The notes below the pieces were generated by a model, which saw only the letters and a program-made list of their open reading frames with translations, did not search any database and was not told the origin of the DNA. The translations under genes were made by a program, and so were the position numbers. Below, piece by piece: positions 10,723 to 45,244 of a stretch of DNA of 64,000 nt. The DNA is from Actinomycetota bacterium. Its GTDB lineage: Bacteria; Actinomycetota; UBA4738; HRBIN12. The first letter of the stretch is position 1; the number at the start of each line of letters is the position of its first letter. The stretch spans positions 7,393-71,392 of the forward strand of contig DASUTU010000153.1 of NCBI GenBank assembly GCA_036374435.1, given 5' to 3'.

Positions 10723-11016
10723 ATGCTCGTGGCGCTCGAACGCTTCGACCTGCGGATCCCCGCCTGCGGCTCCCTGAAGGAGAAGCGGCACGTCGTGAAG
10801 ACGCTCACGAGCGCCATCCGGTCGAAGTTCAACGTCTCGGTGTCCGAGGTGGACCACCACGACCTGTGGCAGCGAACGGCCCTCGCCGTGGCCGTGGCGG
10901 CGGGCGACGGGTATCACGCCCGGCGGGTCCTGCACGAGGTGGAGAAGCTCGTGGACCGCTGGCTGGAGGTCGAGGTGATCGACACGGACGTCTCGCTCCA
11001 TTACCCGGAGACCTGA
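10723..11016 (+). CDS. DUF503 (YlxP-like) protein
   Basis: MLVALERFDLRIPACGSLKEKRHVVKTLTSAIRSKFNVSVSEVDHHDLWQRTALAVAV. Conserved position between infB and rbfA. Confidence 0.8.
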   Translation: MLVALERFDLRIPACGSLKEKRHVVKTLTSAIRSKFNVSVSEVDHHDLWQRTALAVAVAAGDGYHARRVLHEVEKLVDRWLEVEVIDTDVSLHYPET

Positions 11017-11020
11017 GCCG

Positions 11021-11395
11021 GTGACGGACGGGAGCCGGCCGAGCCGCGTGGCCGAGGAGTTCCGGGAGATCCTTGCCGAGGAGATCCCTCGGCTGAAGGA
11101 CCCGCGGATCGGGTTCGTCACGGTGACGGGGGTGAAGGTCACGGGCGACCTGCGGCACGCCCGGGTGTTCTACACGGCGCTCGGGGACGAGCGGGCTCGC
11201 CGGGCCACGGCCGCGGCGTTGCGGTCGGCGCGCGGGCATCTGCGCCGGGTGATCGGGGACCAGGTCCGGATGAAGGTGCTCCCGGACCTGGCGTTCGAGG
11301 AGGACGAGACGGCCGAGGCCGCGGACCGCATCGAGTCGGTCCTGCGCGAGCTCCACACGTCGGAGGGGCAGCCGAGGGAAGGGGAGGGAGAGTGA
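11021..11395 (+). CDS. rbfA: ribosome-binding factor A
   Basis: RVAEEFREILAEEIPRLKDPRIGFVTVTGVKVTGDLRHARVFYTALGD matches RbfA. Confidence 0.9.
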   Translation: MTDGSRPSRVAEEFREILAEEIPRLKDPRIGFVTVTGVKVTGDLRHARVFYTALGDERARRATAAALRSARGHLRRVIGDQVRMKVLPDLAFEEDETAEAADRIESVLRELHTSEGQPREGEGE

Positions 11396-12372
11396 AGGAC
11401 TTGCTGGCCGAGGCGGCTCGGGCGCTCGCGGACGCGTCCGAGGTGGCCATCGCGGCCCACGTGAACCCGGACGCGGACGCCCTCGGCTCGGCGCTCGGCC
11501 TGTCGAACTTCCTCCGGGCCCGCGGCGCGTCGACCGTGTGTTCGTTTCCCAACGAGCCCTACCACCCGCCGAGATGGGTCGAGCTGCTCCCCGGCAACGA
11601 CGCGCTGGTCCCGCCGCGCGAGTTCCCCAAAGCGCCGGCGGTCATGGTGACCTGCGACGTCGCCTCGACGGACCGGCTGGGGATGCTCGCGCCGGCCGCG
11701 GCGAAGGCGGAGACGCTCGTGTGGATCGACCACCACGTGAGCAACGAGGGCCACGGGACCATCCCGCTGATCGACCCCACCGCGAGCTCGACCGCCGAGG
11801 TCGTGTGGCGGCTGCTCCGCGAGATGGGCGGAGAGATCTCGGAGGCCTCCGCGGTGTGCCTGTACGCGGGCGTCGTCACCGACACGGGCCGGTTCCAGTA
11901 CGAGGCCGTGACGCCCCAGACGTTGCGGCTGGGCGCCGAGCTCCGGGAATACGCGTTCGACCACACGCGGCTGGTCCAGGGCTTGTACGAGGACAACGGC
12001 CTGGCGTACCTGCGGCTGCTCGGCGTGGCCCTCGAACGCATCGCGCTCGAGCCCGACGCGGACCTGGTCTGGAGCTACCTGACGCAAGCCGACCTCGGCT
12101 CGGCGGGGGTGCACCCGGCCGAGACCGACGACCTGATCGACGTCGTCCGCACGGCGAGGGAGGCGGACGTCACGGCCGTGATCAAGGAGCAGATCGACGG
12201 CCGCTTCAAGGTCAGCTTGCGTTCGAAGCGAGGGCACGACGTCGCGGCGGTCGCGGCGCAGTTCGGCGGCGGCGGGCACCGGCTGGCCGCCGGCTACACG
12301 TCGCCGCACGGGCTCGCGGAGACCGTCGACCGGCTGAAGGCCGCCCTTCGGGCTCCGGGCCACGGGGCCTGA
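11392..12372 (+). CDS. nrnA: DHH-family phosphoesterase NrnA (bifunctional oligoribonuclease / pAp phosphatase)
   Basis: DHH motifs HVNPDADALGSALGL and WIDHHVSNEGHG. Conserved position between rbfA and truB. Confidence 0.85.
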   Translation: MKDLLAEAARALADASEVAIAAHVNPDADALGSALGLSNFLRARGASTVCSFPNEPYHPPRWVELLPGNDALVPPREFPKAPAVMVTCDVASTDRLGMLAPAAAKAETLVWIDHHVSNEGHGTIPLIDPTASSTAEVVWRLLREMGGEISEASAVCLYAGVVTDTGRFQYEAVTPQTLRLGAELREYAFDHTRLVQGLYEDNGLAYLRLLGVALERIALEPDADLVWSYLTQADLGSAGVHPAETDDLIDVVRTAREADVTAVIKEQIDGRFKVSLRSKRGHDVAAVAAQFGGGGHRLAAGYTSPHGLAETVDRLKAALRAPGHGA

Positions 12373-12377
12373 CCGGC

Positions 12378-13226
12378 GTGAGCGGCGAGCGTGGCGGGCT
12401 CCTGCTCGTCGACAAGCCGGCGGGCGTCACCTCTCACGACGTCGTGGACGCGGTGCGCCGGGCGTTGGGGACGAAGAAGGTGGGGCACGCCGGCACGCTC
12501 GACCCCATGGCCACCGGGCTGCTGCTGGTCGGGGTGGGCCGCGCCACCCGGCTCCTCCGGTACTTCGGCGACCTGCCGAAGGTGTACGAGGGCACCGCGC
12601 GGCTGGGGGTCGAGACCGACACCCTGGACGCCGAGGGCACGGTCGTCCGCACGTCCGAGGTTTCGGTCACGCTGGACGACGTCGAGCGGGCCTTCGTGGC
12701 GCTGGTTGGCCCCTCCCTCCAGCGCCCGCCGGCGTATTCGGCGGTGAAGGTGGGGGGCCGGAAGCTCTACGAGGCGGCGCGCGCCGGCGAGGCCCTGGAG
12801 GCGCCGCCCCGCCCGATCCGGGTCGACGAGATCCGCGTGCTCGCGTTCGACGGGACCGACGTCGAGTTCTCCGTGGTGTGCTCCGGGGGAACGTACGTGC
12901 GGGTGTTGGTCGCCGACGCCGGGGTGTCGCTCGGATGCGGCGCTCACCTGCGGCGGTTGCGACGGACCGGGATCGGGCCCTACCGGGTCGCCGACGCCGA
13001 CCCGCTCGGCACGCTGGGCTCCCCGCTGTCCCTCGAGACCGCGGTGGCCCACCTGCCGAAGATCGATCTGTCCGACGAGGAGGCCCGGGCGGCGTCGAAC
13101 GGGAGCATCCTGGCGCCGGCCGGCCTCGACGCGCCGTACGCGGTGTTCGATCGGGGTGGTCGGCTGATCGGGATCTACCGGGACCAGGGCGCGAAGGCCC
13201 GTCCAGAGGTCATACTGCCCCGATGA
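12378..13226 (+). CDS. truB: tRNA pseudouridine(55) synthase
   Basis: GLLLVDKPAGVTSHDVVDAVRRALGTKKVGHAGTLDPMATGLLLVGVGRATRLL (catalytic Asp in GTLDP). GTG start; the long 11538..13226 ORF is in the same frame, but its upstream part is junk. Confidence 0.9.
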   Translation: MSGERGGLLLVDKPAGVTSHDVVDAVRRALGTKKVGHAGTLDPMATGLLLVGVGRATRLLRYFGDLPKVYEGTARLGVETDTLDAEGTVVRTSEVSVTLDDVERAFVALVGPSLQRPPAYSAVKVGGRKLYEAARAGEALEAPPRPIRVDEIRVLAFDGTDVEFSVVCSGGTYVRVLVADAGVSLGCGAHLRRLRRTGIGPYRVADADPLGTLGSPLSLETAVAHLPKIDLSDEEARAASNGSILAPAGLDAPYAVFDRGGRLIGIYRDQGAKARPEVILPR

Positions 13227-14326
13227 CCGAACCGATCACCGCCGCGCGAGAGGCGCTCGTCACCCCGGCCAGGGGCGGTGCGACCAAACGGGTCCTCCAG
13301 GTGGTCGTCTCGGTTGCGATCGTCGTCGGTATCTTCGCGTTCGCCATCCCGCGGATCGCCGACTACTCGGCGGTCTGGGGCACCATGTCCGACCTCTCGT
13401 GGCTGGAGCTATGGTCGCTGATCGGGATCACGGTGCTGAACCTCGCCACGTACTGGTTCGCGAACATGGCGGCGCTCCCCGGCCTGACGCTCGGCAAGTC
13501 CGCGGTCCTCACGCAGACGACGACGTCGGTGGCGAACACCCTGCCGGCCGGCGGGGCCGTGGCGGTCGGGCTCACGTACACCATCCTGCGGTCGTGGGGG
13601 TTCCACCGGCAGTCGATCGCGTTGTACGTCGGCGTTACGGGCGTCTGGAACATCTTCCTGAAGCTCGCCCTGCCCATCTTCGCGCTGTCGCTGCTCGCGC
13701 TCGTGGGCGGCGCCACCGCGGCGCTGGTGGTGGCCGCGCTCGTCGGCCTGGGGGTCCTCGGCGCGGCCGTGACGTTGTTCGCGCTCGCCTTGTGGAAGAA
13801 GGAGTTCGCCCGCCGGATCGGGGACGGGCTCGGGCGCGCCGCCTCCGCGCTCCGTCGGATCGTCCGCCGCCCGCCGATCCGCGACTGGGGCGAACACGCG
13901 GTGGCCTTTCGCAAGCGGACCATCGCCCTCGTGGTCGACCGGTGGCCCTGGCTGACCCTCACGACGGTCGTGTCGCACCTGATGTTGTGGGTCGTGCTCC
14001 TTGCTGCGCTCCGCCACGTGGGAGTGTCGCAGCAGGAGGTGAGCACGCTCGAGACGCTGGCCGTGTTCGCGTTCGGCCGTCTGCTGACGGCGCTGCCGAT
14101 CACGCCCGGGGGGCTCGGCGTGATCGAGCTCGGCTACATCGGCGGCCTGGTCGCGGCCGGTGGGAACGAGCCGCAGGTGGTGGCGGCGGTCCTGCTGTTC
14201 CGGGTCTTGACCTACGGCGTGCCGATCCCGCTCGGCGGCGCGACGTATCTGGTCTGGCGAGGCCGCTCGAGCTGGCGCCGGTCCGAAGCCCCGACGCCAA
14301 CCGCCACCCCGCCGGCGCCGGGTTAA
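13223..14326 (+). CDS. polytopic membrane protein, lysylphosphatidylglycerol-synthase transmembrane-domain / flippase-like family
   Basis: ATG overlaps the truB stop (ATGA). About 8 TM helices with family-typical LFRVLTYGVPIPLGGATYLVWRG and GRLLTALPITPGGLGVIELGYIGGLVAAG motifs. Confidence 0.75.
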   Translation: MTEPITAAREALVTPARGGATKRVLQVVVSVAIVVGIFAFAIPRIADYSAVWGTMSDLSWLELWSLIGITVLNLATYWFANMAALPGLTLGKSAVLTQTTTSVANTLPAGGAVAVGLTYTILRSWGFHRQSIALYVGVTGVWNIFLKLALPIFALSLLALVGGATAALVVAALVGLGVLGAAVTLFALALWKKEFARRIGDGLGRAASALRRIVRRPPIRDWGEHAVAFRKRTIALVVDRWPWLTLTTVVSHLMLWVVLLAALRHVGVSQQEVSTLETLAVFAFGRLLTALPITPGGLGVIELGYIGGLVAAGGNEPQVVAAVLLFRVLTYGVPIPLGGATYLVWRGRSSWRRSEAPTPTATPPAPG

Positions 14327-15030
14327 GACGAACGCGCCGCCTCGTCCGGCTCGGGTGCCGGGGCGTGCGGCCCGCGGTGCAGCGCCAGGTCGCGGATCTC
14401 GGTGACGATCGCGGCGGTGGCCACCGCCACGCCCGATCCGAGGAGGACCCCGGCCACGACGTCGGACAACCAGTGGGCGCCGAGGTAGACGCGGGAGAGG
14501 CCCATGAGGAACGCGAACCCGGCGGCCGCCCACTCCCAGCGACGACGGGCCGGTCCCGCCGGCATGACCACGAGCACGAGCGCCACGGCGATGGCGGCGC
14601 CGGCCACGGCGTGACCGGAGGGGAACGAGAAGCTGCCGCCGGTGTCCACGAGGGCCCCGGAGGGCCGCCCTCGGTGGAAGGTGCTCTTGGACAGGGTGAG
14701 CAGGAGCTCGGCCATCGCCGCCGTCACCGCCCAGACCGCGAATGCGCGCCACCTGGTGCGGACGGCCAGCCAGGCTCCCACCACGATCCGGAGCGGGATC
14801 GTCACGATGCCGGCCCCGAGCACGTTCAAGGCGTGGGCCAGGGCGGTGAGGGGGGCGCTCCTGACGTCTTCCATCCAGCCGTGGACGGCTCGGTCCCACT
14901 CGCCGATGAACCGCACGCTGGTCGCCGGGGCGCGGGCGGTGGGGTGCACGCCCACGCCGGCGAACATCAGCGCCACGACCGCCAGCAGGCCGACCGCATA
15001 CCACAGGGCCCGCCGGTGATCGGCCAGCAC
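14323..15030 (-). CDS. PAP2-family lipid phosphatase (canonical motifs)
   Basis: All three acid-phosphatase motifs are intact: KSTFHRGRP (KX6RP), SFPSGHA (PSGH), SRVYLGAHWLSDV (SRX5HX3D). GTG start lies 2 nt after the upstream gene's stop (TGA-CC-GTG). The N-terminal extension in the ORF track is overprint. Confidence 0.8.
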   Translation of the reverse strand: MLADHRRALWYAVGLLAVVALMFAGVGVHPTARAPATSVRFIGEWDRAVHGWMEDVRSAPLTALAHALNVLGAGIVTIPLRIVVGAWLAVRTRWRAFAVWAVTAAMAELLLTLSKSTFHRGRPSGALVDTGGSFSFPSGHAVAGAAIAVALVLVVMPAGPARRRWEWAAAGFAFLMGLSRVYLGAHWLSDVVAGVLLGSGVAVATAAIVTEIRDLALHRGPHAPAPEPDEAARSS

Positions 15031-15032
15031 GG

Positions 15033-15584
15033 TCAGTCGGTCCCGGGACAGGGCGGCGCGCCGGCCCCGCACAACACGATGCCGAGATCGGCCAGCCGTC
15101 GCACCAGGCTCGCGCGAGGGCGGAACCCGATCGCCTGGTCGGCCTGGAGGACCTCCGTGGGGTCGCCCGATCCGAACCGGTACTCGACCCGGACGCACCC
15201 GCCGGCGAACGTGTAGTACCGGTTGGCGGCGAAGACCGGGTCGAGCGACAGCGGCTCCTCGAACCGTCGGGTCCCCTCCTCGCCGGGCGCGGGGACGACC
15301 TCCACCGCCGCGGAGAGATCGCACTCGGAGACGAGCTCCACGCGCACCGTCCGGATCCCGGTGCGGTCGGAGCTGAGCCAGAACCGGTAGGCGCCGTCGG
15401 TGATCTGGATCCCCTCGAACGACCAGCCGGGCAGCAACACGTCCAGGCACGGCAACATCGTGGCGGTGGGCACGGCCTGCGCGGCGAGCGTCAACACGCG
15501 GGTGGACTCGTCGCCCACCCGGCATTCGGGTGCCACGTCGACCGCCTGGACACACGCCGGAAGGAGGGCGGCCACGGTGATCAT
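15033..15584 (-). CDS. putative lipoprotein (183 aa), unknown function
   Basis: MITVAALLPACVQAVD... signal peptide with a lipobox-like LPAC. Normal composition (FWLSSDRTGIRTVRVELVSECDLSAAVEVV...). Tightly packed between the two PAP2-type genes. The larger 15033..16991 ORF overlaps the real upstream gene and is R/G/P-rich. Confidence 0.55.
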   Translation of the reverse strand: MITVAALLPACVQAVDVAPECRVGDESTRVLTLAAQAVPTATMLPCLDVLLPGWSFEGIQITDGAYRFWLSSDRTGIRTVRVELVSECDLSAAVEVVPAPGEEGTRRFEEPLSLDPVFAANRYYTFAGGCVRVEYRFGSGDPTEVLQADQAIGFRPRASLVRRLADLGIVLCGAGAPPCPGTD

Positions 15585-15604
15585 CGCGACGGCCGCTCTC
15601 CGCC

Positions 15605-17287
15605 TCACGCGAAGACCGCCCAGTTGCTGGCCACGAGCCCCAGCAGCAGCAGGCCGACGATCACCACGGCCAACGTCCGCGCGACCCGTCGCACGCTCCA
15701 CCGCTGGATCGGTATCGGGTCGTGAGCGGGAGCGAGGCGACGGAACTCCTCGAGCAGGTTGCGGCCGTCGCGCCGGATCATCACCCGGAGCTGCGTCGGG
15801 CTGGCCACGCCGCGGGTGGCCGCGAAGGCCTCGGCGATCTCCTCCGGGGTGAAATGCCGCGACGCGACGCGGTACACGGTCTCGGGGTCCGACCGCAGCC
15901 CGAGCACGAGCATCATGTTCGCCAGGTCGACGGCCTGCCGCCACGGCGAGGGACGGACCTGCACGAAGAAGACGTCGATCAGCCGCAGCCGCCGGTCCTC
16001 GAGCATCAGGTTGGCCGGCTTGATGTCGCGGTGGGCCAGGCCCGTCTCCCACAACCGCCGGATCAGGCCGAGGCCCTGGTCGATGACGTCTTCGTCCACC
16101 TCGGCGTCGCCGAGCTCCACCGCGCCGGGGAAGAACTCCATGACGATCATGTACTCGCGCTCCGGCGTGATCTCGACGACCCCGAACGGATGCGGCGTCG
16201 GCAACCCGGCGTCGGCCATCAGCCGCAGCGTGTAGTCCTCGTATTCCACGAACCGCCGAACGGTCTGGAACGGGGTCTCGTCCTCGAGCGCGCCGTACAG
16301 GATCTGACGGCCGAGCTTGTACCAGCGGTCCGCCCGGACGTGGTTCTTGGCGTACAGCTTGGCGAACGCGTACCGGCGGAGCCCACCCGTCTCGTCGACG
16401 AGCGTCAGGCGCAGCGGCGTCGATCCCCCCGACCCCGCCAGGCCGATCGGCCGGACCTCCGCCACGTCCACGCCCAGCTGGTCCCGGACGGCCCGCACGA
16501 TGGCCTGCCCGCGCCGCCCCGAGACATCGAGGTGGGCGGTCTTGCCGCGGCGGAACGTCACCGGGAACACGTCGTTGGGCGCGAACCAGCGGAAGGCGAC
16601 GATCGGCACGGTCACGCCGATCAACACCCCGAGGACCTGGTCGCTCAGGTGATCGACGCCGAGGTAGGAGCGCGCCAACGCCACCGTCCCGACCACGATC
16701 GCCGCCGCCGCCTTGGCCTTGAACCTCGGCCGGCCGGCCGGCACGAGCGCGTACGCCATGCCGGCCAGGGTGACGGCGAGCGAGGCGATCGGCCGCGAGG
16801 GGAAGGAGAACCCGACCCAGTCCGTGGCGATCTCGACGCCGAACGGCCGCGACCGGCCCACGGCGAGCGACGTGGCGTAGGTGACGTACTCCACCGTGAG
16901 CAGGGAACCGACGAACACGGCCAGGTGCCGCCATCGCCGGAAGAGCACCAGGGCCAGCAGCGTGGCCCAGCGCAACCCCCGGAGCGGCCATCGGCTCGCC
17001 AGGCCGTCCAGGAGCTGCATCACGTCCGTGACCGCGCCCACCCGGATGCGGGCGAACGCGCGCACGAGCGACGAGTCGATCTGGTCGATCGCGGTGGCCC
17101 GGGTGCCGATCAGGGCCGCGGCCACCGTGAGGCCGGCCCCGATGGCGACGAGCATCAGCAGGAGGCGTCCGGTCCGGCCGATCTCGCGGGGCAGCGGCGG
17201 GGGTTCCCCCGAGGGGCGCCGCCGGAGGCGGCGAAGGCTCCGCTGGCCGATCGACGAAGGCTGTTCCACCCGCTCCACGCCGCGCAC
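15605..17287 (-). CDS. membrane protein: N-terminal degenerate PAP2-like domain fused to a C-terminal protein-kinase-like domain
   Basis: PAP2 fold is recognisable but its catalytic motifs are lost (LAVGRSRPF, FPSRP in place of PSGH, ARSYLGVDHLSD). Kinase-like part has YAFAKLY (VAIK-like Lys), LAHRDIKPANLML (HRD catalytic loop) and LIDVFF (DFG-like). A final TM helix follows. GTG start lies 1 nt after the upstream OpuAC stop. Confidence 0.75.
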   Translation of the reverse strand: MRGVERVEQPSSIGQRSLRRLRRRPSGEPPPLPREIGRTGRLLLMLVAIGAGLTVAAALIGTRATAIDQIDSSLVRAFARIRVGAVTDVMQLLDGLASRWPLRGLRWATLLALVLFRRWRHLAVFVGSLLTVEYVTYATSLAVGRSRPFGVEIATDWVGFSFPSRPIASLAVTLAGMAYALVPAGRPRFKAKAAAAIVVGTVALARSYLGVDHLSDQVLGVLIGVTVPIVAFRWFAPNDVFPVTFRRGKTAHLDVSGRRGQAIVRAVRDQLGVDVAEVRPIGLAGSGGSTPLRLTLVDETGGLRRYAFAKLYAKNHVRADRWYKLGRQILYGALEDETPFQTVRRFVEYEDYTLRLMADAGLPTPHPFGVVEITPEREYMIVMEFFPGAVELGDAEVDEDVIDQGLGLIRRLWETGLAHRDIKPANLMLEDRRLRLIDVFFVQVRPSPWRQAVDLANMMLVLGLRSDPETVYRVASRHFTPEEIAEAFAATRGVASPTQLRVMIRRDGRNLLEEFRRLAPAHDPIPIQRWSVRRVARTLAVVIVGLLLLGLVASNWAVFA

Positions 17288-17288
17288 T

Positions 17289-18200
17289 CTAGCCCTCGCC
17301 CGCCACGAGGCCGCGCCCCACCAGCCACGTTCGAGCGACCTCGGCGGGGGTCAGGTCGGCCACCTCGACCCGGAGGTTCATCAGGCGGAGCTCCGCGGTG
17401 GTCAGGGAGGCGGACACGCGGTTGACGGCCTCTTCGAGCCGCGGGCCGAACCGCTCGACCGCCGCGGCGTTGGCCACGGGCGTGACGTGCTCGGCCGGTT
17501 GCAGGTGGCGGTCGTCCTCCAGGAGCACGAGGTCGCTTCGGAGGACCTCGGGGCTCGTCGTGAACATCAGGCCGACGTCCACGAGGCCCCGCACCAACGC
17601 CTGCGCGGTGAGCGGGCCGCTCGAGTCCAGGGGGACGAACGAGTCGAACGTGATCCCGTACGTCTCCTCGAGCCCCGGCTGGCACAGCGGACGGCGGGGG
17701 CACTCGGCTGGGCCGCCCAGGGCGAGCCCCTCGTCCCCCGCGAGGTCCGAGAGCCGGGCCACCCGGGCGGCGCGGGCCAGGTCGGCCGAGACGGCGAACG
17801 CGTTTCGGTTCTGCGCTCGGGCCGACTCGAAGGCCACGAGCCCGCGCGCGTCGAGCTCGACGGCGAGGGCCCCTCGCACCACGCCGAGGTTCGAGGAGGC
17901 CGAGCCGCCGGTGACGAACTCCAGCAGGCTGCCGGCGTATTCGGGCACGAGCTCGATCAGGCCTCGCTGGAGTGACGGCTGGACCAGCTCGCGTGGCCCG
18001 ATGTCGAACCGCCGGACGACGCGGATGCCCTCGGCCTCGACGGCCTGCGCGTAGAGCTCGGCGAGCAGAACGCTCTCGCCGAAGTTGAACGAGCCGACGG
18101 TGAGCGCGTCGTCCGTCAGGGCCTGGGGCTCCCGGGGCGGCACCGGAGCGCACGCAGTCAGGATCGCCGCCGCGAGGAGCACCAGCAGCCGGGACCGCAC
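17289..18200 (-). CDS. glycine betaine/choline-type substrate-binding lipoprotein (OpuAC/ProX family), without cognate permease or ATPase
   Basis: MRSRLLVLLAAAILTACAP lipoprotein signal. OpuAC hallmarks TVGSFNFGESVLLAELYAQAVEAEG, ELVPEYAGSLLEF, ECPRRPLCQPGLEETYGI, VLLEDDRHLQPAEHVTPVA. The GTG start is approximate. Confidence 0.8.
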   Translation of the reverse strand: MRSRLLVLLAAAILTACAPVPPREPQALTDDALTVGSFNFGESVLLAELYAQAVEAEGIRVVRRFDIGPRELVQPSLQRGLIELVPEYAGSLLEFVTGGSASSNLGVVRGALAVELDARGLVAFESARAQNRNAFAVSADLARAARVARLSDLAGDEGLALGGPAECPRRPLCQPGLEETYGITFDSFVPLDSSGPLTAQALVRGLVDVGLMFTTSPEVLRSDLVLLEDDRHLQPAEHVTPVANAAAVERFGPRLEEAVNRVSASLTTAELRLMNLRVEVADLTPAEVARTWLVGRGLVAGEG

Positions 18201-18254: not shown

Positions 18255-19190
18255 GTGGAGCGAGCGGACGGGCTCGGTGGCCTGCCGATCACCCCGGAGG
18301 CGAGCGTCGTCACGGTCGGCTTCTTCGACGGCGTGCACCTCGGGCATCGCGCCGTCCTCGAGGCCACGGTCGTCGCCGCCCGCGATCGAGGCCTGCCGGC
18401 GGTGGCCGTCACGTTCGACCGCCATCCGCGCGAGATCCTCACGCCGGGGCGGGAGCCGCGGCTGCTCACGACCGTCGAGCGCAAGGCGGCCCTGATCGAG
18501 GGGCTCGGCGTCGACCTGCTGGTCGTGCTCGAGTTCACCGAAGAGTTCTCTCGATGGCCGGCCGATCGGTTCATGGGCGAGGTTCTCCGGGACGGCCTGC
18601 ACGCCCGGCATTGCGTGATGGGGGCGAACTTCACCTTCGGCCACCGGGCGCTGGGGACGGTGGACACCTTGATCGAGCGGGGCGGCCGGTACGGGTTCGG
18701 CGCCGAACGGGTGGAGCTGCGCGACCTCGAGGGGCTCACGGTGTCCTCCTCGGCGGTGCGGGACGCCGTCTCCCGCGGAGATCTGGAGTGGGCCCGGCGC
18801 GCGCTCGGCCGCCGGTTCGTGCTCGACGGCACCGTCGTGAGCGGGGCGGGACGGGGGCAGGGCCTGGGCTACCCGACGGCGAACCTGCGCACCTGGCCGC
18901 GGCTGCTGCTGCCGGGACAGGGCATCTACGCCGGCCGCGCGAAGGTCGACGGTCGGGCCCACGTCGCCGCGATCGACGTCGGCACCAACCCGACGTTCGG
19001 CACCGAACCGCTCCACGTCGAGTCGTACCTGCTGGATTTCGACGGCGATCTGGTGGGGCGCCCGATGGCCGTGGAGTTCTGGGCGTTCCTTCGGCCCGAG
19101 GTCCGCTTCGAGTCCCCCGAGGAGCTGGTGGCCGCAATGGACGACGACGTGGATCGCACCCGGGCCCTGGTCGACCCCCACGCGCCGTGA
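18255..19190 (+). CDS. ribF: bifunctional riboflavin kinase / FMN adenylyltransferase
   Basis: VVTVGFFDGVHLGHRAVL (FAD synthetase) and GRGQGLGYPTANL...ESYLLDFDGDLVGRPMAVEF (riboflavin kinase). Confidence 0.9.
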   Translation: MERADGLGGLPITPEASVVTVGFFDGVHLGHRAVLEATVVAARDRGLPAVAVTFDRHPREILTPGREPRLLTTVERKAALIEGLGVDLLVVLEFTEEFSRWPADRFMGEVLRDGLHARHCVMGANFTFGHRALGTVDTLIERGGRYGFGAERVELRDLEGLTVSSSAVRDAVSRGDLEWARRALGRRFVLDGTVVSGAGRGQGLGYPTANLRTWPRLLLPGQGIYAGRAKVDGRAHVAAIDVGTNPTFGTEPLHVESYLLDFDGDLVGRPMAVEFWAFLRPEVRFESPEELVAAMDDDVDRTRALVDPHAP

Positions 19191-20278
19191 GCTGGGGCCG
19201 CCACGCTCGCCCGTCCCGGCTGCCGTTGGGTCTCCTCGTGGGCGCACTGATCCTGGCCGCCGTGGGGGCCGGCGCCTGGGCCATCACGCGACCCCGCGAC
19301 GGGTCGGATCGGGTCCAGACCTCGCCTGATCCCCCGACGCCGAGCGAGGTCGCGGCGGCCGCGGAGGGCAGCCCGCCCGGGCCGGCCGCGGCGACGCCCC
19401 CGACCCCGAGCCCTTCCGCGGAGCCGAGATGGCCGCTCGTGGTCCATGGGACCGGCGACGTCAGCCTGGACCCGGAGTACATCTCGGCGTTCCGGTCGAA
19501 CGGATACGGGTGGGCGTGGAGCGGGCTGGGCGGGCTGTTCCGTCGAGACGACCTCACGGTCATCAACCACGAGTGCCCCTCGACCGACATCGTCGCGCCG
19601 CTTCCCAAACAGTTCAACTTCCGGTGTGACCCGGAGGCGCTGCCCGCCGCGAGACGGGCCGGGGTGGAGGTCCTCAACCTGGCGAACAACCACGGGTACG
19701 ACCACGGCCCCGAGGCGCTGCTCGACTCGATCCGCAACATCCGCCGGGCCGGGCTGGTCCCCGTGGGAGCCGGCCCGAACGAGCGGGCGGCGGACCGACC
19801 CGCCTTCGTCGAGGTCGGGGGGTGGCGCATCGCGGTCGTCGGTATTAGCCAGGTGCTCGACCCCGTGAACCAGGTGGCCGAAGGGGACAGGCCGGGGACG
19901 GCCGTGGGCCACGACTTCGACCGGGCCCTCCGGGCCATCCGAGCCGCGGAGCAGGAAGCCGACCTGGTGCTGGTGACGATCCACTGGGGGGTCGAGCTCG
20001 ACACGGAGCCGCGCGACTACCAGATCGAGCAGGCCCGAGAGATGATCGAGGCCGGAGCTGACGCGATCTTCGGGCACCACGCGCACCGCCTGCAGCCGAT
20101 GGACACGTATCGCGGCCGCCCGATCTTCTACGGCCTCGGGAACTTCGTGTGGCCGAACTTCTCGGTGGAGGGCTCCACGACGGCCGTGGCCGAGGTCCGG
20201 GTCTCGGCGGACGGGCGGGTCCGGGGGAGGCTCCTCCCGGCGTTCATCACCGCTCCCGGCCACCCGGAGCTCCGTTGA
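19187..20278 (+). CDS. CapA-family (poly-gamma-glutamate synthesis-like) metallophosphatase, membrane-anchored/secreted
   Basis: GTG overlaps the ribF stop. N-terminal TM LPLGLLVGALILAAVGAGAWA plus a Pro/Ala linker. CapA motifs VINHECP, NLANNHGYDHG, VTIHWGVE, FGHHAHRLQP. Confidence 0.8.
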   Translation: MSWGRHARPSRLPLGLLVGALILAAVGAGAWAITRPRDGSDRVQTSPDPPTPSEVAAAAEGSPPGPAAATPPTPSPSAEPRWPLVVHGTGDVSLDPEYISAFRSNGYGWAWSGLGGLFRRDDLTVINHECPSTDIVAPLPKQFNFRCDPEALPAARRAGVEVLNLANNHGYDHGPEALLDSIRNIRRAGLVPVGAGPNERAADRPAFVEVGGWRIAVVGISQVLDPVNQVAEGDRPGTAVGHDFDRALRAIRAAEQEADLVLVTIHWGVELDTEPRDYQIEQAREMIEAGADAIFGHHAHRLQPMDTYRGRPIFYGLGNFVWPNFSVEGSTTAVAEVRVSADGRVRGRLLPAFITAPGHPELR

Positions 20279-41740: not shown

Positions 41741-42643
41741 ATGGTGACCGCGACGAGCGACCTCCGCCGGGCCTGGGAGCTCGGCGCCGGGGACGAGATC
41801 GCCCCGGGGCTCCTCGCCCAGCAGCTGCTGGGCGGCGGGTCGAGGTACGAGGCGTACCTGGCGTTCGACGAGCGCCTGCATCACCTGGTCGTGGTGAAGG
41901 TCCTTCGCCCCGACCGGATCGGCGACGAGGCGGCCCGGAGCGGGCTCCGCGCAGAGGCGGAGGTGCTCGCCGCGGTCAACCACCCGGCGATCGCGCGCAT
42001 GCTCCGGGCCGGTCTGGACGACGAGCGCCCGCACTTGGTGCTCGAGTTCGTGGAGGGACCGCGCCTGTCGACGCTGATCCGCAGGTTCGGCCCGGTCGAG
42101 TCGGTCCAGGCGGCGCCCCTGGCGGTCGAGGTTGCCTCGGCGTTGCACTACCTGCACGGCCTCGGCCTGGTCCACCTGGACGTGAAGCCGAAGAACCTGA
42201 TCATGGGCGCACCCCCGCGCCTGATCGACCTCAGCATCGCCCGGTCGATCGAATCGGCGGCTCGGCTCGACGTGGCGATCGGGACCGACGCCTACATGGC
42301 GCCGGAGCAGTGCACGCCTTCACCCGGGCGCGTCGGGCCGCCCGCCGACGTGTGGGGTCTGGGCGTGACGTTGTACGAGGCGCTGGCCGGGCGCCCCGCC
42401 TTCCCGGCGGGTGATCCCGACGGCGCCTCGGCAGAAGAGCGGTTCCCGCAGCTCGTGTGTGGCGTGGAGCCGCTCCCGGAGCACGTGCCCGAGGAGCTGC
42501 GGAGCGCGGCCGAGGCCGCGTTGGCGTACGAACCCGCGGACCGGCCGGCCGTGGCAGAGCTCGCCGACCTGGTCGAGCCGCTCCTGCGGCACCCCCGGCG
42601 CCTGGTGCTCAACCAGCTGAAACCGAGAACGAGGAAGGAGTGA
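41741..42643 (+). CDS. Hanks-type Ser/Thr protein kinase, catalytic domain only (300 aa, no sensor or TM)
   Basis: G-loop LGGGSRYEAY, VVVKVL (Lys), HLDVKPKNL (HRD-like loop with Leu for Arg), IDLS (DFG-like), TDAYMAPE (APE). Confidence 0.85.
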   Translation: MVTATSDLRRAWELGAGDEIAPGLLAQQLLGGGSRYEAYLAFDERLHHLVVVKVLRPDRIGDEAARSGLRAEAEVLAAVNHPAIARMLRAGLDDERPHLVLEFVEGPRLSTLIRRFGPVESVQAAPLAVEVASALHYLHGLGLVHLDVKPKNLIMGAPPRLIDLSIARSIESAARLDVAIGTDAYMAPEQCTPSPGRVGPPADVWGLGVTLYEALAGRPAFPAGDPDGASAEERFPQLVCGVEPLPEHVPEELRSAAEAALAYEPADRPAVAELADLVEPLLRHPRRLVLNQLKPRTRKE

Positions 42644-42649
42644 GGGGAG

Positions 42650-43072
42650 ATGCCCTGGGGGAAGATCGCGGTGGTCGGGCTGGCCACGCTGGTCACGCTC
42701 GGCCTGGGATTGGTGGCGACGCAACCGTGGAAGGGGCCGAACCCGGTGGACGCCCTGGAGCTCGATCAAGCCTGGAAAGATGGCGATGCTCCCGACGGCG
42801 AGATCGGGGACGATGACGACGATGGCGACGACACCGGGACCCGCACCCGAGGCGGTGCACGGGACGCCTCTCGCACCGACGACGGCCGGGACGGAACCCG
42901 CGAGGGCGACACCCGCGGGGCACGCGGGACGGGAACGGCCGACAGCGTCGCGGTCGCGACCAACACCGGAGGGGACCGCGACACCAACGGCGGGGTCGTC
43001 ACGGCCACCGACGACGGGGGCGGGGCCCCCAGCGTCTCGCGGGACAGCGTCTCCGGAGGCAGCGATACCTGA
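42650..43072 (+). CDS. small secreted/membrane-anchored acidic low-complexity protein (140 aa), paralogue-like to 41348..41716
   Basis: SD GAGGGGAG before ATG, 7 nt after the kinase stop. MPWGKIAVVGLATLVTLGLGLVATQPW, then DGDAPDGEIGDDDDDGDDTGTRTRGGARDASRTDDGRDGTREGD... Confidence 0.55.
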   Translation: MPWGKIAVVGLATLVTLGLGLVATQPWKGPNPVDALELDQAWKDGDAPDGEIGDDDDDGDDTGTRTRGGARDASRTDDGRDGTREGDTRGARGTGTADSVAVATNTGGDRDTNGGVVTATDDGGGAPSVSRDSVSGGSDT

Positions 43073-43094
43073 TCCATCCGATCGAGATCCCGAC

Positions 43095-44579
43095 GTGGCC
43101 CCCGGGAGCGACTCCCGGGGGCCCGTTCCTTCGCGGCGGCGGTTGAGCTCGAGCATCGCCGTCCGGATCCTTCTCGCGTTCGCGGCGCTCATGACGGTCG
43201 CTACGGTGGTCTCGGTCATCTTGGTGCGGCAGGTGTTGTTCGCCGGGCTGGACGGCCGGATCGACTCCGACCTGGTTCAGGAATCGCGCGAGCTCACGCG
43301 CCTCGCTCGCGGGAACGACCCGGACACCGGCGAGCCGTTCGGGACCGACGTTCGGCGGATCCTCGAGGTCTTCCTCCAGCGGAACGTCCCGGCCCGCAAC
43401 GAAGCGTTGTTGTCCTTCGTGGGCGGGGAGCTCTTCGTGCGCAGCCGCAACGTGTTGCCCTACCGGCTCGACGAAGACGACGACCTGGTTCGCCGCTGGG
43501 TGGAGGCCTCGGACGTCCAGATGGACGCGGTGCAGACGCCGGGGGGCACGGTCCGGTACCTGGCCATGCCCGTGCAGGTGTCGGGTCGAACGGAGGCGGT
43601 GTTCGTGGCCGCCGTGTTCCGCGATCTCGAGGCCGAGTCGATCCAGCCGGCCGTTCGCGCGGCGGGCTTCGTCGGGCTGGGGGCCCTCCTGGTCGGTTCC
43701 CTCCTGGCGTTCCTGGTGGCGAGGAGGATCATCGACCGCGTGCAGGCGGTCGAGTTCAGCGCACGTTCGATCTCCGAGTCCGATCTCAGCCGCCGGGTGG
43801 AGGTGAGCGGCTCGGACGAGATCGCCCACCTCGCGCAGACGTTCAACGACCTGCTCGACCGCCTCGAGGGCGCGTTCCGAGCCCAGCGGGCGTTCGTGGA
43901 CGACGCGGGCCACGAGCTGCGCACGCCGATCACGATCATCCGCGGCCAGCTCGAGGTGCTCGGCGACGATCCACGACAACGAGAACACGCGGTGGCGCTC
44001 GTCACGAGCGAGCTCGACCGGATGAGCCGGATGGTGAACGACCTGCTCCTGTTGGCGAAGGCCGAGCAGCCGCAGTTCCTCGAGTTCGACCTCGTGGACG
44101 TCGGCTCGCTCACCCGTCGCGTGAACGAGAAAGCCGGGGCCCTCGCCGATCGGGACTGGCGGGTCGACGAGATCGCCGGCGGCGCCATCGTGGGCGACGG
44201 AGAGCGGTTGGAGCAGGCCCTGATCCAGCTCCTGCAGAACGCCGTCGATCACACGCCGGACGGAGCGGAGATCGCGGTCGGCTCGCGGATCCGCGACGGG
44301 GTCGCCGAGTTGTGGGTGCGGGACGCCGGGCCGGGCATCCCTCCCGAAGAACGTGAGCGCATCTTCGAACGGTTCGCCCGGGCCGGCGTCCGGCGCTCGG
44401 AGGGGGTCGGCCTCGGCCTGGCCATCGTGCGCGCGATCGCCGAAGGCCACGGCGGACGGGTCCGGCTGGACAGCGAGGTCGGGGTCGGGACCACGATCCG
44501 GATCGAGGTGCCGGTGGACCACGGGGCCGGCGCCGAGCTGCCGGAGGAACGCGAGGACGGCCCGGCGGAGCCCAGCTGA
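43095..44579 (+). CDS. sensor histidine kinase (2 TM, HAMP, HisKA, HATPase), start uncertain (GTG 43095 or TTG 43143)
   Basis: TM1 IAVRILLAFAALMTVATVVSVILV, TM2 AGFVGLGALLVGSLLAFLVA, H-box RAFVDDAGHELRTPIT, N/G boxes LIQLLQNAVDHT, VRDAGPGIP, GVGLGLAIV. Confidence 0.8.
   Translation: MAPGSDSRGPVPSRRRLSSSIAVRILLAFAALMTVATVVSVILVRQVLFAGLDGRIDSDLVQESRELTRLARGNDPDTGEPFGTDVRRILEVFLQRNVPARNEALLSFVGGELFVRSRNVLPYRLDEDDDLVRRWVEASDVQMDAVQTPGGTVRYLAMPVQVSGRTEAVFVAAVFRDLEAESIQPAVRAAGFVGLGALLVGSLLAFLVARRIIDRVQAVEFSARSISESDLSRRVEVSGSDEIAHLAQTFNDLLDRLEGAFRAQRAFVDDAGHELRTPITIIRGQLEVLGDDPRQREHAVALVTSELDRMSRMVNDLLLLAKAEQPQFLEFDLVDVGSLTRRVNEKAGALADRDWRVDEIAGGAIVGDGERLEQALIQLLQNAVDHTPDGAEIAVGSRIRDGVAELWVRDAGPGIPPEERERIFERFARAGVRRSEGVGLGLAIVRAIAEGHGGRVRLDSEVGVGTTIRIEVPVDHGAGAELPEEREDGPAEPS
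43099..43121 (+). promoter_or_regulatory. very stable hairpin CCCCCGGGAG-cga-CTCCCGGGGG (10-bp perfect stem)
   Basis: Lies 27 nt after the stop of the acidic-protein gene, at or just before the sensor-kinase start. Confidence 0.4.
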
Positions 44580-45244
44580 TGGGCGGCGCGCGGATCCTGA
44601 TCGCGGAGGACGAGGCCGGCATCTCGTCGTTCCTGGACAAGGGGCTCCGGGCCAACGGGTTCACCCCGACCGTCGTTGCCGACGGGGCCTCGGCCCTGGC
44701 GCTGGCCCGGACGGATCAGTTCGACCTCTTCGTGCTCGACCTCGGGCTCCCTTCGCTGGATGGCTTGTCGGTGTTGGAGGAGCTCCGCCGTACGGGCAGC
44801 CGGCTGCCGGTGGTGGTCCTCACGGCGCGGTCCGAGCTCGAGGACACCGTGGCCGGGCTGGACCTGGGCGCCGACGACTACGTCACAAAACCCTTCCGCT
44901 TCGAGGAGCTGCTGGCTCGCATCCGCGCCCGGCTCCGTACGGGAGGGGAGAAGCAGGAGCTCGAGCTGCTCGCCGGGGACGTCGCGCTCGACCTGCGTCG
45001 CCGACGCGCCCGGGTCGGAGAGCGGGAGGTGGACCTGTCCGCCCGCGAGTTCGCGCTCGCCGAGACCTTCTTCCGCCACCTGGGCCAGGTGTTGTCGCGG
45101 GAGCAGCTCCTCAGCCTGGTCTGGGGGTACGACCGTGATCCCGGGTCGAACGTCGTGGACGTGTACGTGGGGTACCTGCGCCGCAAGCTGGGGGACGACC
45201 TGATCTCCACGGTGCGGGGGATGGGGTACCGGCTCGAGGCGTGA
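44579..45244 (+). CDS. OmpR/PhoB-family response regulator
   Basis: ARILIAEDE...[10 protein letters not shown]...LTAR receiver domain; winged-helix [23 protein letters not shown]...[15 protein letters not shown] overlaps the kinase stop. Confidence 0.9.

Follow-up and report, generated by a model that had tools for sequence, protein, structure and literature searches.

A conserved gene module around a receptor-like atypical kinase, with a possible role in envelope signalling, in uncultured soil Actinomycetota

What is the function of an operon in which a phosphatase fold devoid of its catalytic residues is joined to a kinase domain, next to a solute-binding lipoprotein and to an intact phosphatase of the same fold? 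By what means bacteria keep track of their supply of phosphorylated carrier lipids and envelope phospholipids is, to my knowledge, largely unknown. Here, I examine such a locus within a 64 kb stretch of DNA (the whole of which is referred to as the window); its features are collected in Table 1. Direct support exists for gene content, folds, the state of the motifs, the logic of the topology, co-conservation, the fusions of domains and purifying selection. That the locus encodes a conserved module for envelope signalling, centred on a receptor-like atypical kinase and with the roles for its parts discussed below, is a proposal to which I would give about an even chance.

Table 1. Features of the locus, in window coordinates
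Feature	Position	Strand	Length or residues	Remarks
OpuAC-family solute-binding lipoprotein	17289..18200	-	303 aa	PF04069; GTG at 18200, stop at 17289
PAP2-like::RIO/Bud32-like kinase fusion	15605..17287	-	560 aa	
Juxtamembrane motif RRRPSGEPPPLPR	17186..17224	-	aa 22-34	cytoplasmic
Dead PAP2-fold domain	16580..17176	-	aa ~38-236	
Degenerate C1, GRSRP	16844-16858	-		Lys lost, RP kept
Degenerate C2, PSRP	16790-16801	-		His lost
Degenerate C3, ARSYLGVDHLSD	16640-16675	-		Ser to Ala, nucleophilic His to Asp
Cytoplasmic atypical kinase domain	15698..16540	-	aa ~250-530	
C-terminal TM7	15608..15685	-	aa 532-554	AF2 helix
Cys-rich lipoprotein	15033..15608	-	191 aa	GTG start 15608
Intact PAP2 lipid phosphatase	14323..15030	-	235 aa	PF01569; GTG start 15030
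MprF-N-type flippase-like membrane protein	13223..14326	+	367 aa	PF03706

Coordinates and Pfam searches bear out the four packed minus-strand genes at 14323-18200 that had been reported from a first reading of the sequence. Their spacing is not the 1-17 nt then given: the OpuAC stop lies 1 nt ahead of the fusion start, a 4 nt GTGA overlap follows, and the last gap is of 2 nt. The flippase-like gene does run convergently on the plus strand, as described, but it does not end 4 nt away, for its stop overlaps that of the PAP2 gene in a common TTAA. In the HMM searches of the four proteins that had been called for, PAP2 and OpuAC scored above cut-off and the matches of the fusion to RIO1, Pkinase and APH were weak. 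The locus had also been taken for an island in a variable gap between truB and ribF; its GC content (0.71-0.75) is that of the flanks and the same layout is kept throughout the lineage, which rules out a horizontally acquired island. Chance ORFs are likewise ruled out, all four genes having homologues and high GC3. A scan for promoters and terminators gave no sites and is uninformative at 72% GC. Elsewhere in the window, at 41741-42643, lies a gene for a Hanks-type kinase.

Throughout the lineage the module has its fixed place between ribF and truB. Among genomes of related species, 67 have sufficient flanking sequence, and 60 of these carry all four genes in order, so that the co-conservation which was to be checked is real. 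The OpuAC gene lies upstream, in the same orientation, in 66 of 72 loci (and is missing from 6/72), the PAP2 gene is downstream in 67/72, and the flippase-like gene is adjacent in 51 of 62 loci; the 80 syntenic loci are not independent, because their ancestry is shared. Rearranged loci retain the fusion together with the ectodomain, the PAP2, the flippase-like gene or the OpuAC gene, and the association outlasts rearrangement or relocation in L081 (flippase-like gene co-directional with the fusion, and an OpuAC-domain protein near it), L083 (flippase-like gene overlapping the fusion by 4 nt, PAP2 adjacent), the relocated cluster L084 (PAP2 and flippase-like gene adjacent, OpuAC missing), L086 (OpuAC gene adjacent to the fusion but divergent), L088 (PAP2 adjacent) and the distant L089 (OpuAC gene overlapping the fusion by 4 nt). 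The flippase-like gene is counted as a real partner of the module, for there are relatives in which it runs in the same direction and overlaps. A PGA_cap gene, which follows ribF in only ~32 of 80 loci, is not counted as a member, and some distant relatives are solitary, without partners. The family amounts to ~500 clusters at 50% identity plus thousands of metagenomic sequences, all from uncultured MAGs or metagenomes; a homologue search with a divergent profile gave only the same uncultured clade, with no cultured or named member, and the family appears to be confined to abundant uncultured soil Actinomycetota.

The fusion protein consists of a cytoplasmic N-terminal tail, a dead PAP2 domain of six TM helices, a cytoplasmic kinase and a C-terminal TM7. 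Whether the N-terminal domain is PAP2-fold at all was a point to be checked, and it is: it scores 29.1 bits against PF01569 (cut-off 27.2), a fusion-family profile matches Bacillus subtilis PgpB (E=2.7e-8), and the six helices of the fold are there, with PgpB-like helices predicted. Its catalytic degeneracy, claimed earlier, is confirmed: C1 is without its Lys, C2 without its His and C3 without the nucleophilic His; the RP and both motif arginines stay, and a His is present in C3, displaced one position from the nucleophilic site. Some 60 representatives, with identities as low as 39%, share this degeneracy. Because these three residues are lost, the domain is without the phospho-histidine mechanism. 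In comparison with the PgpB/YodM-type PAP2s (B. subtilis PgpB, A. aeolicus LpxE, E. coli PgpB), the fusion thus has neither the catalytic Lys nor the His residues and carries a kinase; in the searchable literature no characterised PAP2 with an attached kinase was found.

In the sequence, Arg and Lys are abundant in the N-terminal tail and in the TM2-3, TM4-5 and post-TM6 loops. With TM7, the C-terminus of the fusion comes to lie outside the cell. The tail carries the motif RRRPSGEPPPLPR, which is invariant or nearly so among close homologues and kept to ~40% identity; a second paralogue has it as well, and so do the STAND and REC fusions described below. Its acceptor position is Ser or Thr in most members. 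On these sequence grounds it is a candidate phospho-acceptor or docking site; AF2 gives no confident contact between the motif and the kinase, the tail having a pLDDT of 31-44.

The kinase-like domain had been called intact-looking, and its ATP-binding and catalytic residues are indeed invariant across relatives: the P-loop GSGGST, the Lys in FAKLY, the catalytic loop HRDIKPAN and the metal loop IDVFF do not vary in 52 close and ~60 distant sequences. Both the PAP2-like and the kinase domain are under purifying selection (dN/dS 0.05-0.36), the kinase (0.05-0.14) being better conserved than its PAP2-like anchor. By fold, the domain matches RIO, Bud32 and APH kinases, with RIOK3, Rio1, Bud32 and RioK1 on top. 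By profile, it matches RIO1 weakly (PF01163, 21.1 bits, gathering score 22), falls below the cut-offs of Pkinase (PF00069, 19.9 bits versus 31.7) and of the Bud32/KEOPS model TIGR03724 (23.3 bits versus 125), and has a weak Pfam match to APH. With this Pkinase score, and with HRDxKPxN and the beta3 Lys but no DFG...APE activation segment in its sequence, it does not classify as Hanks-type. RIO and Bud32 kinases are soluble factors of ribosome biogenesis or tRNA modification; the kinase of the fusion departs from them in its Hanks-like loop (HRDIKPAN) and in its GSGGST P-loop.

The third gene had been described as coding for a separate lipoprotein. A lipoprotein it is, with the lipobox LLPAC and six invariant Cys, but its independence does not hold: its product is the split-off ectodomain of the fusion, to which it is joined in many relatives. 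In at least 12 full-length relative clusters the ectodomain is fused after the last TM helix of the kinase protein, directly after TM7 and without a second signal peptide. It has no Pfam or NCBIfam match; its fold is a Mog1/PsbP/LpqN-like alpha/beta fold, common to actinobacterial envelope lipid- or ligand-binding proteins and to the PknH sensor domain. Other relatives extend the list of fusions. P0155 combines an N-terminal intact PAP2, the dead PAP2, the kinase and the ectodomain on a single protein; some members bear an N-terminal REC-LuxR fusion, with an overlapping histidine kinase gene ahead; and an N-terminal STAND-HTH-TPR fusion occurs on 3 contigs. Two joins were discarded: P0357 (fusion, ectodomain and PAP2 in operon order), which is probably a frameshift artefact, since joined in this way the PAP2 would have its topology inverted, and, for a similar reason, P0188 (OpuAC C-terminus joined to the fusion).

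The OpuAC protein, with the signal peptide MRSRLLVLLAAAILTAC and the lipobox LTAC, covers positions 3-255 of the 257 of PF04069 (E=3.9e-38, 131.9 bits) and aligns end to end with solved two-lobe solute-binding proteins (SBPs), its PDB relatives being OpuBC, OpuCC, ProX, OsmF and EgtUC (E 1e-19 to 1e-10). Against the OsmF equivalog it scores 81 bits, the cut-off being 400. According to the alignment, two cage positions keep their aromatics (Y88, F213), whereas N133 and E237 replace aromatics, so that there is no four-aromatic cage; at least 63 of 68 orthologues share this remodelled cage, and the protein has a conserved extra Cys pair. The quaternary-amine-type binding once attributed to it is therefore probably not of the classical kind. 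As had been stated, no permease or ATPase is near: six frames of the 64 kb window contain no ABC signature (LSGGQ) or matching Walker A, and in the flanks (~8 kb) of related loci an ABC signature is absent in 79 of 80 and present in one. OpuBC, OpuCC, ProX and OsmF are thus members of the same family, PF04069, and the present protein differs in its remodelled cage, in having no permease or ATPase nearby and in its coupling to a kinase gene.

The stand-alone PAP2 was presented as canonical, with all three motifs, and this stands: it matches PF01569 (E=7e-20, 71.5 bits) and has a complete C1 (KSTFHRGRP), C2 (PSGH) and C3 (SRVYLGAHWLSD). Among solved structures, B. subtilis PgpB comes closest to it (E=1.1e-13), and it is below the cut-offs of the NCBIfam equivalogs SepP (40 versus 250) and PgpB (34.7 versus 261). 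The flippase-like protein scores 58.9 bits against PF03706 (cut-off 33.4), weakly against TIGR00374 (40.2, below the cut-off of 43.2) and 56.7 against NF033480 (cut-off 600); it comprises the TM region only, without a synthase domain, and is therefore not a bifunctional MprF. No solved relative of it is detectable by sequence.

The locus most likely serves to sense or control an envelope lipid; taken as a receptor-type module, it would sense lipid phosphate. The dead PAP2 domain may at most bind, and never cleave, a phosphorylated lipid head group in the outer leaflet, because the hydrolytic Lys and both His are lost and the arginines kept; candidate ligands are polyprenyl-P, polyprenyl-PP, PA and PGP. 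TM7 would lead outside to the disulfide-rich ectodomain, here split off as a lipoprotein, and the orphan OpuAC lipoprotein with its remodelled cage might act as a soluble extracytoplasmic co-receptor, like GlnH for PknG. The intact PAP2 could make or remove the lipid-phosphate ligand, or be itself the controlled enzyme, and the MprF-type protein would carry that same lipid across the membrane. The output would be cytoplasmic phosphorylation, probably starting with the RRRP(S/T)G juxtamembrane motif, and in relatives the module seems to be wired directly to REC-LuxR or STAND-HTH-TPR regulators. On a bolder and less probable reading, the fusion would be a pseudo-phosphatase receptor kinase that reads, with the help of the ectodomain and OpuAC, how much carrier-lipid or phospholipid phosphate there is in the outer leaflet, polyprenyl-P and polyprenyl-PP being among the candidates. 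The signal would cross the membrane to the RIO-fold kinase, and under the control of the latter would stand the PAP2 and flippase-like proteins encoded alongside or, in relatives, the fused transcription regulators. Ligand identity, kinase activity, substrate and signalling direction are what I infer here, and the "sensing and remodelling" suggested in the preliminary description for the four genes has to be read in the same conditional sense.

The same parts may be arranged in a metabolic rather than a signalling scheme. As a small-molecule or lipid kinase, comparable to WaaP, Kdo kinase, APH or choline kinase, the kinase domain would phosphorylate its substrate at the cytoplasmic face, be it a polyprenol, a lipid-linked sugar or the precursor of a head group. 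The product would be translocated by the flippase-like protein and dephosphorylated outside by the intact PAP2, leaving the dead PAP2 only to hold the lipid and OpuAC to deliver or capture the head-group amine. Such a lipid or glycolipid cycle agrees with the Kdo/WaaP and APH Pfam matches of relatives (E 1e-3 to 1e-6), with a kinase sequence that has no DFG...APE activation segment and with the persistence of a lipid enzyme and a transporter, namely the PAP2 and the flippase-like protein, as partners. I nevertheless consider it rather doubtful. The form HRDxKPxN is that of Ser/Thr protein kinases, APH and choline kinases having HGD/HxDxxxxN, and the loop of the fusion is of the former type; the dead PAP2 pocket and the kinase are on opposite leaflets; signalling proteins typically have such features as a receptor-style ectodomain, a partner SBP and fusion to regulators, here REC-LuxR (its cognate histidine kinase included) and STAND-HTH-TPR; and an invariant basic Ser/Thr motif lies on the same polypeptide.

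Within regulation, the kinase fold could instead be a RIO/Bud32-style ATPase switch, or a phospho-scaffold controlled by an STPK and without a substrate of its own, which regulates the PAP2 and the flippase-like protein. The top fold matches point this way, as does the NCBI name "RIO1 family regulatory kinase/ATPase" of some members; the layout has a precedent in Mycobacterium tuberculosis (Mtb) MviN, with a polytopic part, a kinase-like domain, a TM helix and an ectodomain (PMC12599244); and a Hanks-type kinase gene is at hand in the window. This remains unlikely, for the catalytic residues are all invariant, unlike those of the MviN pseudokinase, and no observation connects the operon with the distant Hanks kinase gene. 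The RIO signature motifs are STGKEA and HxDLSEYN, and both are absent from the fusion sequence. Less probable still is that OpuAC is the ordinary SBP of an osmoprotectant importer, with permease and ATPase encoded elsewhere, which owes its place in the operon to inherited synteny. It is a clear PF04069 member close to the solved OpuBC, OpuCC, ProX and OsmF, it is missing from L084 and from the six loci noted above, which are otherwise intact, and the transporter search covers 64 kb of the genome only. On the other side stand the single nucleotide between its stop and the fusion start, its overlapping, adjacent or nearby position in L089, L086 and L081, the two conserved cage changes, the low score against the OsmF equivalog and the near-complete absence of ABC signatures around the related loci.

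Among known systems, the combination had not been recognised as a characterised one, and indeed no such system is found in the searchable literature or among database names; the PAP2::kinase architecture is mentioned neither in the lipocone paper nor in the pseudokinase review. The nearest layout is that of Mtb MviN/MurJ (Rv3910), in which a polytopic domain is followed by an intracellular pseudokinase domain, a TM helix and an extracellular domain (PMC12599244). Both go from a polytopic lipid-handling domain through a cytoplasmic kinase fold and a single TM to an extracytoplasmic domain, and both are actinobacterial, with an envelope-related regulatory role that for the fusion is presumptive. 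They differ in their polytopic parts, a MurJ flippase in MviN and a PAP2 in the fusion; the kinase motifs of MviN are all degraded whereas those of the fusion are invariant, and the ectodomains are a carbohydrate-binding fold and a Mog1/PsbP-like fold, respectively; no sequence homology between MviN and the fusion was detected. In the GlnH-GlnX-PknG system of Corynebacterium and Mycobacterium, an orphan SBP lipoprotein is an extracellular sensor and not a transporter component (PMC6069109, PMC9769921). Here, too, an orphan SBP lipoprotein gene lies beside genes for a membrane protein and a kinase, an analogy which suggests a sensing role for OpuAC. GlnH, however, belongs to another, amino-acid-binding SBP family, GlnX, with four helices, is a protein of its own and PknG is soluble, whereas in the present case the membrane part, of PAP2 fold, and the kinase form one polypeptide.

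To sum up, a non-hydrolysing PAP2 fold joined to an intact kinase, and genetically tied to a PAP2, a flippase-like protein and an orphan SBP, makes this family a concrete candidate sensor. If the pseudo-phosphatase receptor reading is true, it would be a direct bacterial sensor of lipid-carrier status and a type of receptor kinase previously undescribed in bacteria. It would also show a pseudoenzyme that serves bacteria as a receptor domain, add a second route from SBP to kinase in sensing beside GlnH-PknG, and give an instance of a receptor whose ectodomain has become a separate lipoprotein. Apparently confined to abundant soil Actinomycetota, the family may matter for the envelope biology of a major soil lineage.

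Between truB and ribF lie five genes, in a backbone that follows the usual order (rimP-nusA-infB-rbfA-truB ... ribF-rpsO-pnp) and in a window of actinobacterial GC content (70-75%). The four on the minus strand encode an OpuAC-family lipoprotein, a 560-aa fusion of a PAP2-like domain with a RIO/Bud32-like kinase domain, a 191-aa lipoprotein and a stand-alone PAP2; the one on the plus strand encodes a flippase-like protein. Pfam and NCBIfam searches upheld the family assignments of the preliminary description, the fusion also giving weak RIO1, Pkinase, APH and Bud32 matches besides PAP2, and neither database yielded a match for the 191-aa lipoprotein. The minus-strand genes are indeed tightly packed, but their spacing from OpuAC to PAP2 is a 1-nt gap, a 4-nt GTGA overlap and a 2-nt gap, not gaps of 1-17 nt; likewise, the convergent flippase-like and PAP2 genes, formerly said to be 4 nt apart, have both stop codons within one TTAA. 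The DUF503 and DHH/DHHA1 genes of the table are ordinary features of the backbone. The PGA_cap/CapA-like gene comes after ribF in no more than about 32 of the 80 related loci and thus probably lies outside the module, and no link was seen between the operon and the Hanks-type kinase cluster further downstream.

Features of the truB-ribF region and of other genes in the window (window positions)
Feature	Position	Strand	Remarks
DUF503 gene	10723-11016	+	between infB and rbfA
DHH/DHHA1 (NrnA-like) gene	11392-12372	+	between rbfA and truB
truB	12378-13226	+	
Flippase-like protein	13223-14326	+	LPG_synthase_TM, 58.9 bits
Stand-alone PAP2, 235 aa	15030-14323	-	Pfam PAP2, E=7e-20
Lipoprotein, 191 aa	15608-15033	-	lipobox LLPAC
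Fusion, 560 aa	17287-15605	-	Pfam PAP2, 29.1 bits vs cut-off 27.2
Juxtamembrane motif RRRPSGEPPPLPR, fusion aa 22-34	17186-17224	-	placed in the cytoplasm
OpuAC-family lipoprotein	18200-17289	-	signal peptide MRSRLLVLLAAAILTAC; Pfam OpuAC, E=3.9e-38
ribF	18255-19190	+	
PGA_cap/CapA-like gene	19187-20278	+	PF09587, E=5e-66; N-terminal TM segment; start overlaps ribF stop by 4 nt
Hanks-type Ser/Thr kinase, then HAMP-HisKA-HATPase histidine kinase and response regulator	41741-45244	+	Ser/Thr kinase PF00069, E=6e-39

That the N-terminal domain of the fusion is a PAP2, as first proposed, is borne out by its Pfam score and by its best solved relative, Bacillus subtilis PgpB (5jki), which a 52-homologue profile aligns motif for motif (E=2.7e-8). 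The loss of all three catalytic motifs (C1 to C3) in the fusion, and their integrity in the stand-alone PAP2, can both be seen in the sequence as described: the latter carries KSTFHRGRP, PSGH and SRVYLGAHWLSD, and the former has lost the catalytic residue from each (C1 GRSRP, without Lys; C2 PSRP; C3 ARSYLGVDHLSD), both motif arginines, R147 and R206, being retained. This degeneracy is equally uniform throughout the fusion family, as far down as 39% identity: the Lys is gone from C1, which usually keeps the RP pair, C2 is mostly PSxP, its His missing, and C3 most often reads [AS]RxYLGVDHPSD, in which the nucleophilic His has become Asp and a His stands one position later. A dN/dS of 0.08-0.36 indicates purifying selection on the PAP2 anchor.

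The kinase domain is under purifying selection too (dN/dS 0.05-0.14), and its motif residues are invariant in close and distant homologues alike: a glycine loop (GSGGST), the beta3 lysine (in FAKLY), a Hanks-type catalytic loop (HRDIKPAN) and the metal-binding Asp (in IDVFF). An activation segment is absent from its sequence. From the charge distribution and the superposition on PgpB, the N-terminal tail, the short loops and the kinase are assigned to the cytoplasm and the degenerate PAP2 motifs to the outer leaflet; by way of the last helix (aa 535-560), the C-terminus comes to lie outside the cell. The juxtamembrane motif RRRP(S/T)GExPPLPR, in which basic residues precede the Ser/Thr position and a proline-rich stretch follows it, is conserved family-wide, the STAND- and REC-fused forms included; candidate roles for it are those of phospho-acceptor, pseudosubstrate and docking site.

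A search of 1.84 billion proteins in a representative library returned 2022 matches to the fusion family, 496 of them with E<=1e-30. Among the 150 best clusters, about 40 have the counterpart of the 191-aa lipoprotein joined to the C-terminus of the kinase, at least 12 of them as full-length proteins of 680-737 aa. There the domain adjoins the last TM helix and no second signal peptide precedes it, which marks these proteins as genuine fusions rather than read-through products; judged by sequence, the lipoprotein of the window is the kinase's own ectodomain in a split version. A single chain of 924 aa (P0155) strings together an intact PAP2, the RRRPSG motif, a dead PAP2, the kinase, a TM helix and the ectodomain. 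Fusions at the N-terminus of relatives tie the module to signal transduction: P0128 and P0138 bear a receiver domain and a LuxR-type HTH, the gene of the former being overlapped by 4 nt by a histidine kinase gene (locus L085), and P0124, P0131, P0133 and P0134 (about 1380 aa) bear a STAND NTPase and a TPR region, P0124 having been seen on three contigs. Two other merged ORFs are probably assembly frameshifts or read-through and were given no weight as evidence, namely P0357 (966 aa; fusion, ectodomain and intact PAP2 in operon order), where the join would invert the PAP2 topology, and P0188 (576 aa), where the OpuAC C-terminus runs directly into the fusion N-terminus.

Scanning one genome per species yielded 196 relatives, from which 80 loci were retained; every one of these belongs to a MAG of an uncultured member of the Actinomycetota, mostly of soil, at 56-87% identity. 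Counting for each gene only loci with enough flank, OpuAC lies upstream on the same strand in 66/72, and downstream are found the ectodomain (74/77), the PAP2 (67/72) and the flippase-like gene (51/62). Co-conservation of the four operon genes, on which the earlier proposal depended, was found in order in 60/67 loci; conservation extends to the flanking ribF and truB, so that the locus is not the variable island it had been taken for. About 14 genomes carry, between the flippase-like gene and truB, a second fusion paralogue that is missing from the window (loci L010-L015, L017, L027, L029, L032, L039, L040 and L065; at about 12100-13800 in most); its PAP2 is also dead (C2 PSWP, C3 SRLYLAADYPSN), its kinase is intact and no ectodomain gene follows.

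Because syntenic loci share a common ancestry, distant relatives were examined for independent evidence. At 43% identity, L081 has the fusion, an ectodomain-like gene and a flippase-like gene on one strand; in L083 the flippase-like gene overlaps that of P0155 by 4 nt, with another PAP2 next; in L084, although the genomic surroundings are unrelated, a 283-aa gene, a flippase-like gene and a PAP2 still come after the STAND-fused version. PAP2, fusion and a 197-aa gene succeed one another in L088, OpuAC adjoins the fusion divergently in L086, and in L089 its gene shares 4 nt with one that encodes kinase and ectodomain as a fusion. Of the most distant relatives, three have no partners beside them.

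As had been noted, no permease or ATPase accompanies the OpuAC protein: in all frames the 64 kb window is free of ABC-transporter signatures, and within about 8 kb only 1 of the 80 related loci has one, a stand-alone fusion copy. Among solved structures its nearest relatives are OpuBC-derived sensors, OpuCC, ProX, OsmF and EgtUC, and the score against the OsmF equivalog is 81 bits (cut-off 400). Alignment to these relatives maps four aromatic-cage positions, of which Tyr88 (in PEYAGS) and Phe213 are kept and the other two are Asn133 and Glu237; each of the four residues recurs in at least 63 of 68 orthologues, and the Cys pair in ECPxRPLC is for the most part retained too. A permease encoded beyond the 64 kb, the case that would tell against the earlier proposal, appears improbable. 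Coupling to a kinase gene together with a remodelled site argues for a sensory role. A 683-aa protein in L081 (4885-6936, minus strand), combining OpuAC, PG_binding_1 and polysaccharide-deacetylase domains near the fusion, ectodomain and flippase-like genes, hints that OpuAC-type domains here have to do with the cell wall rather than with osmoprotectant uptake.

In architecture the nearest precedent is Mycobacterium tuberculosis MviN, where a polytopic domain is followed by a kinase-like domain, a TM helix and an ectodomain (PMC12599244); in logic it is GlnH-GlnX-PknG (PMC6069109, PMC9769921). The membrane part of neither is homologous to that of the fusion. The kinase domain of MviN is dead, whereas that of the fusion looks alive; that the latter is instead a RIO-like ATPase or a scaffold, as with the MviN pseudokinase, appears improbable. 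The best-supported reading, at roughly even chances, is a receptor-type signalling module. The analysis establishes architecture, topological logic, gene association and selection, while ligand, activity, substrate and the direction of signalling are inferred. In such a receptor, a disulfide-rich ectodomain and a PAP2 pocket that binds phosphate but does not hydrolyse would face outwards and, assisted by the orphan OpuAC binding protein, would jointly control the cytoplasmic RIO-fold kinase, with the invariant RRRP(S/T)G motif as a possible first target. The flippase-like protein and the live PAP2 may supply, remove or move the presumed lipid ligand, or be the regulated effectors.

Database names for the family are limited to 'phosphatase PAP2 family protein', 'RIO1 family regulatory kinase/ATPase' or 'Bud32', and no description of the fusion family or of the module was found in the searchable literature. 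The module is rated as kin of the transmembrane receptor kinases that work with accessory binding proteins.
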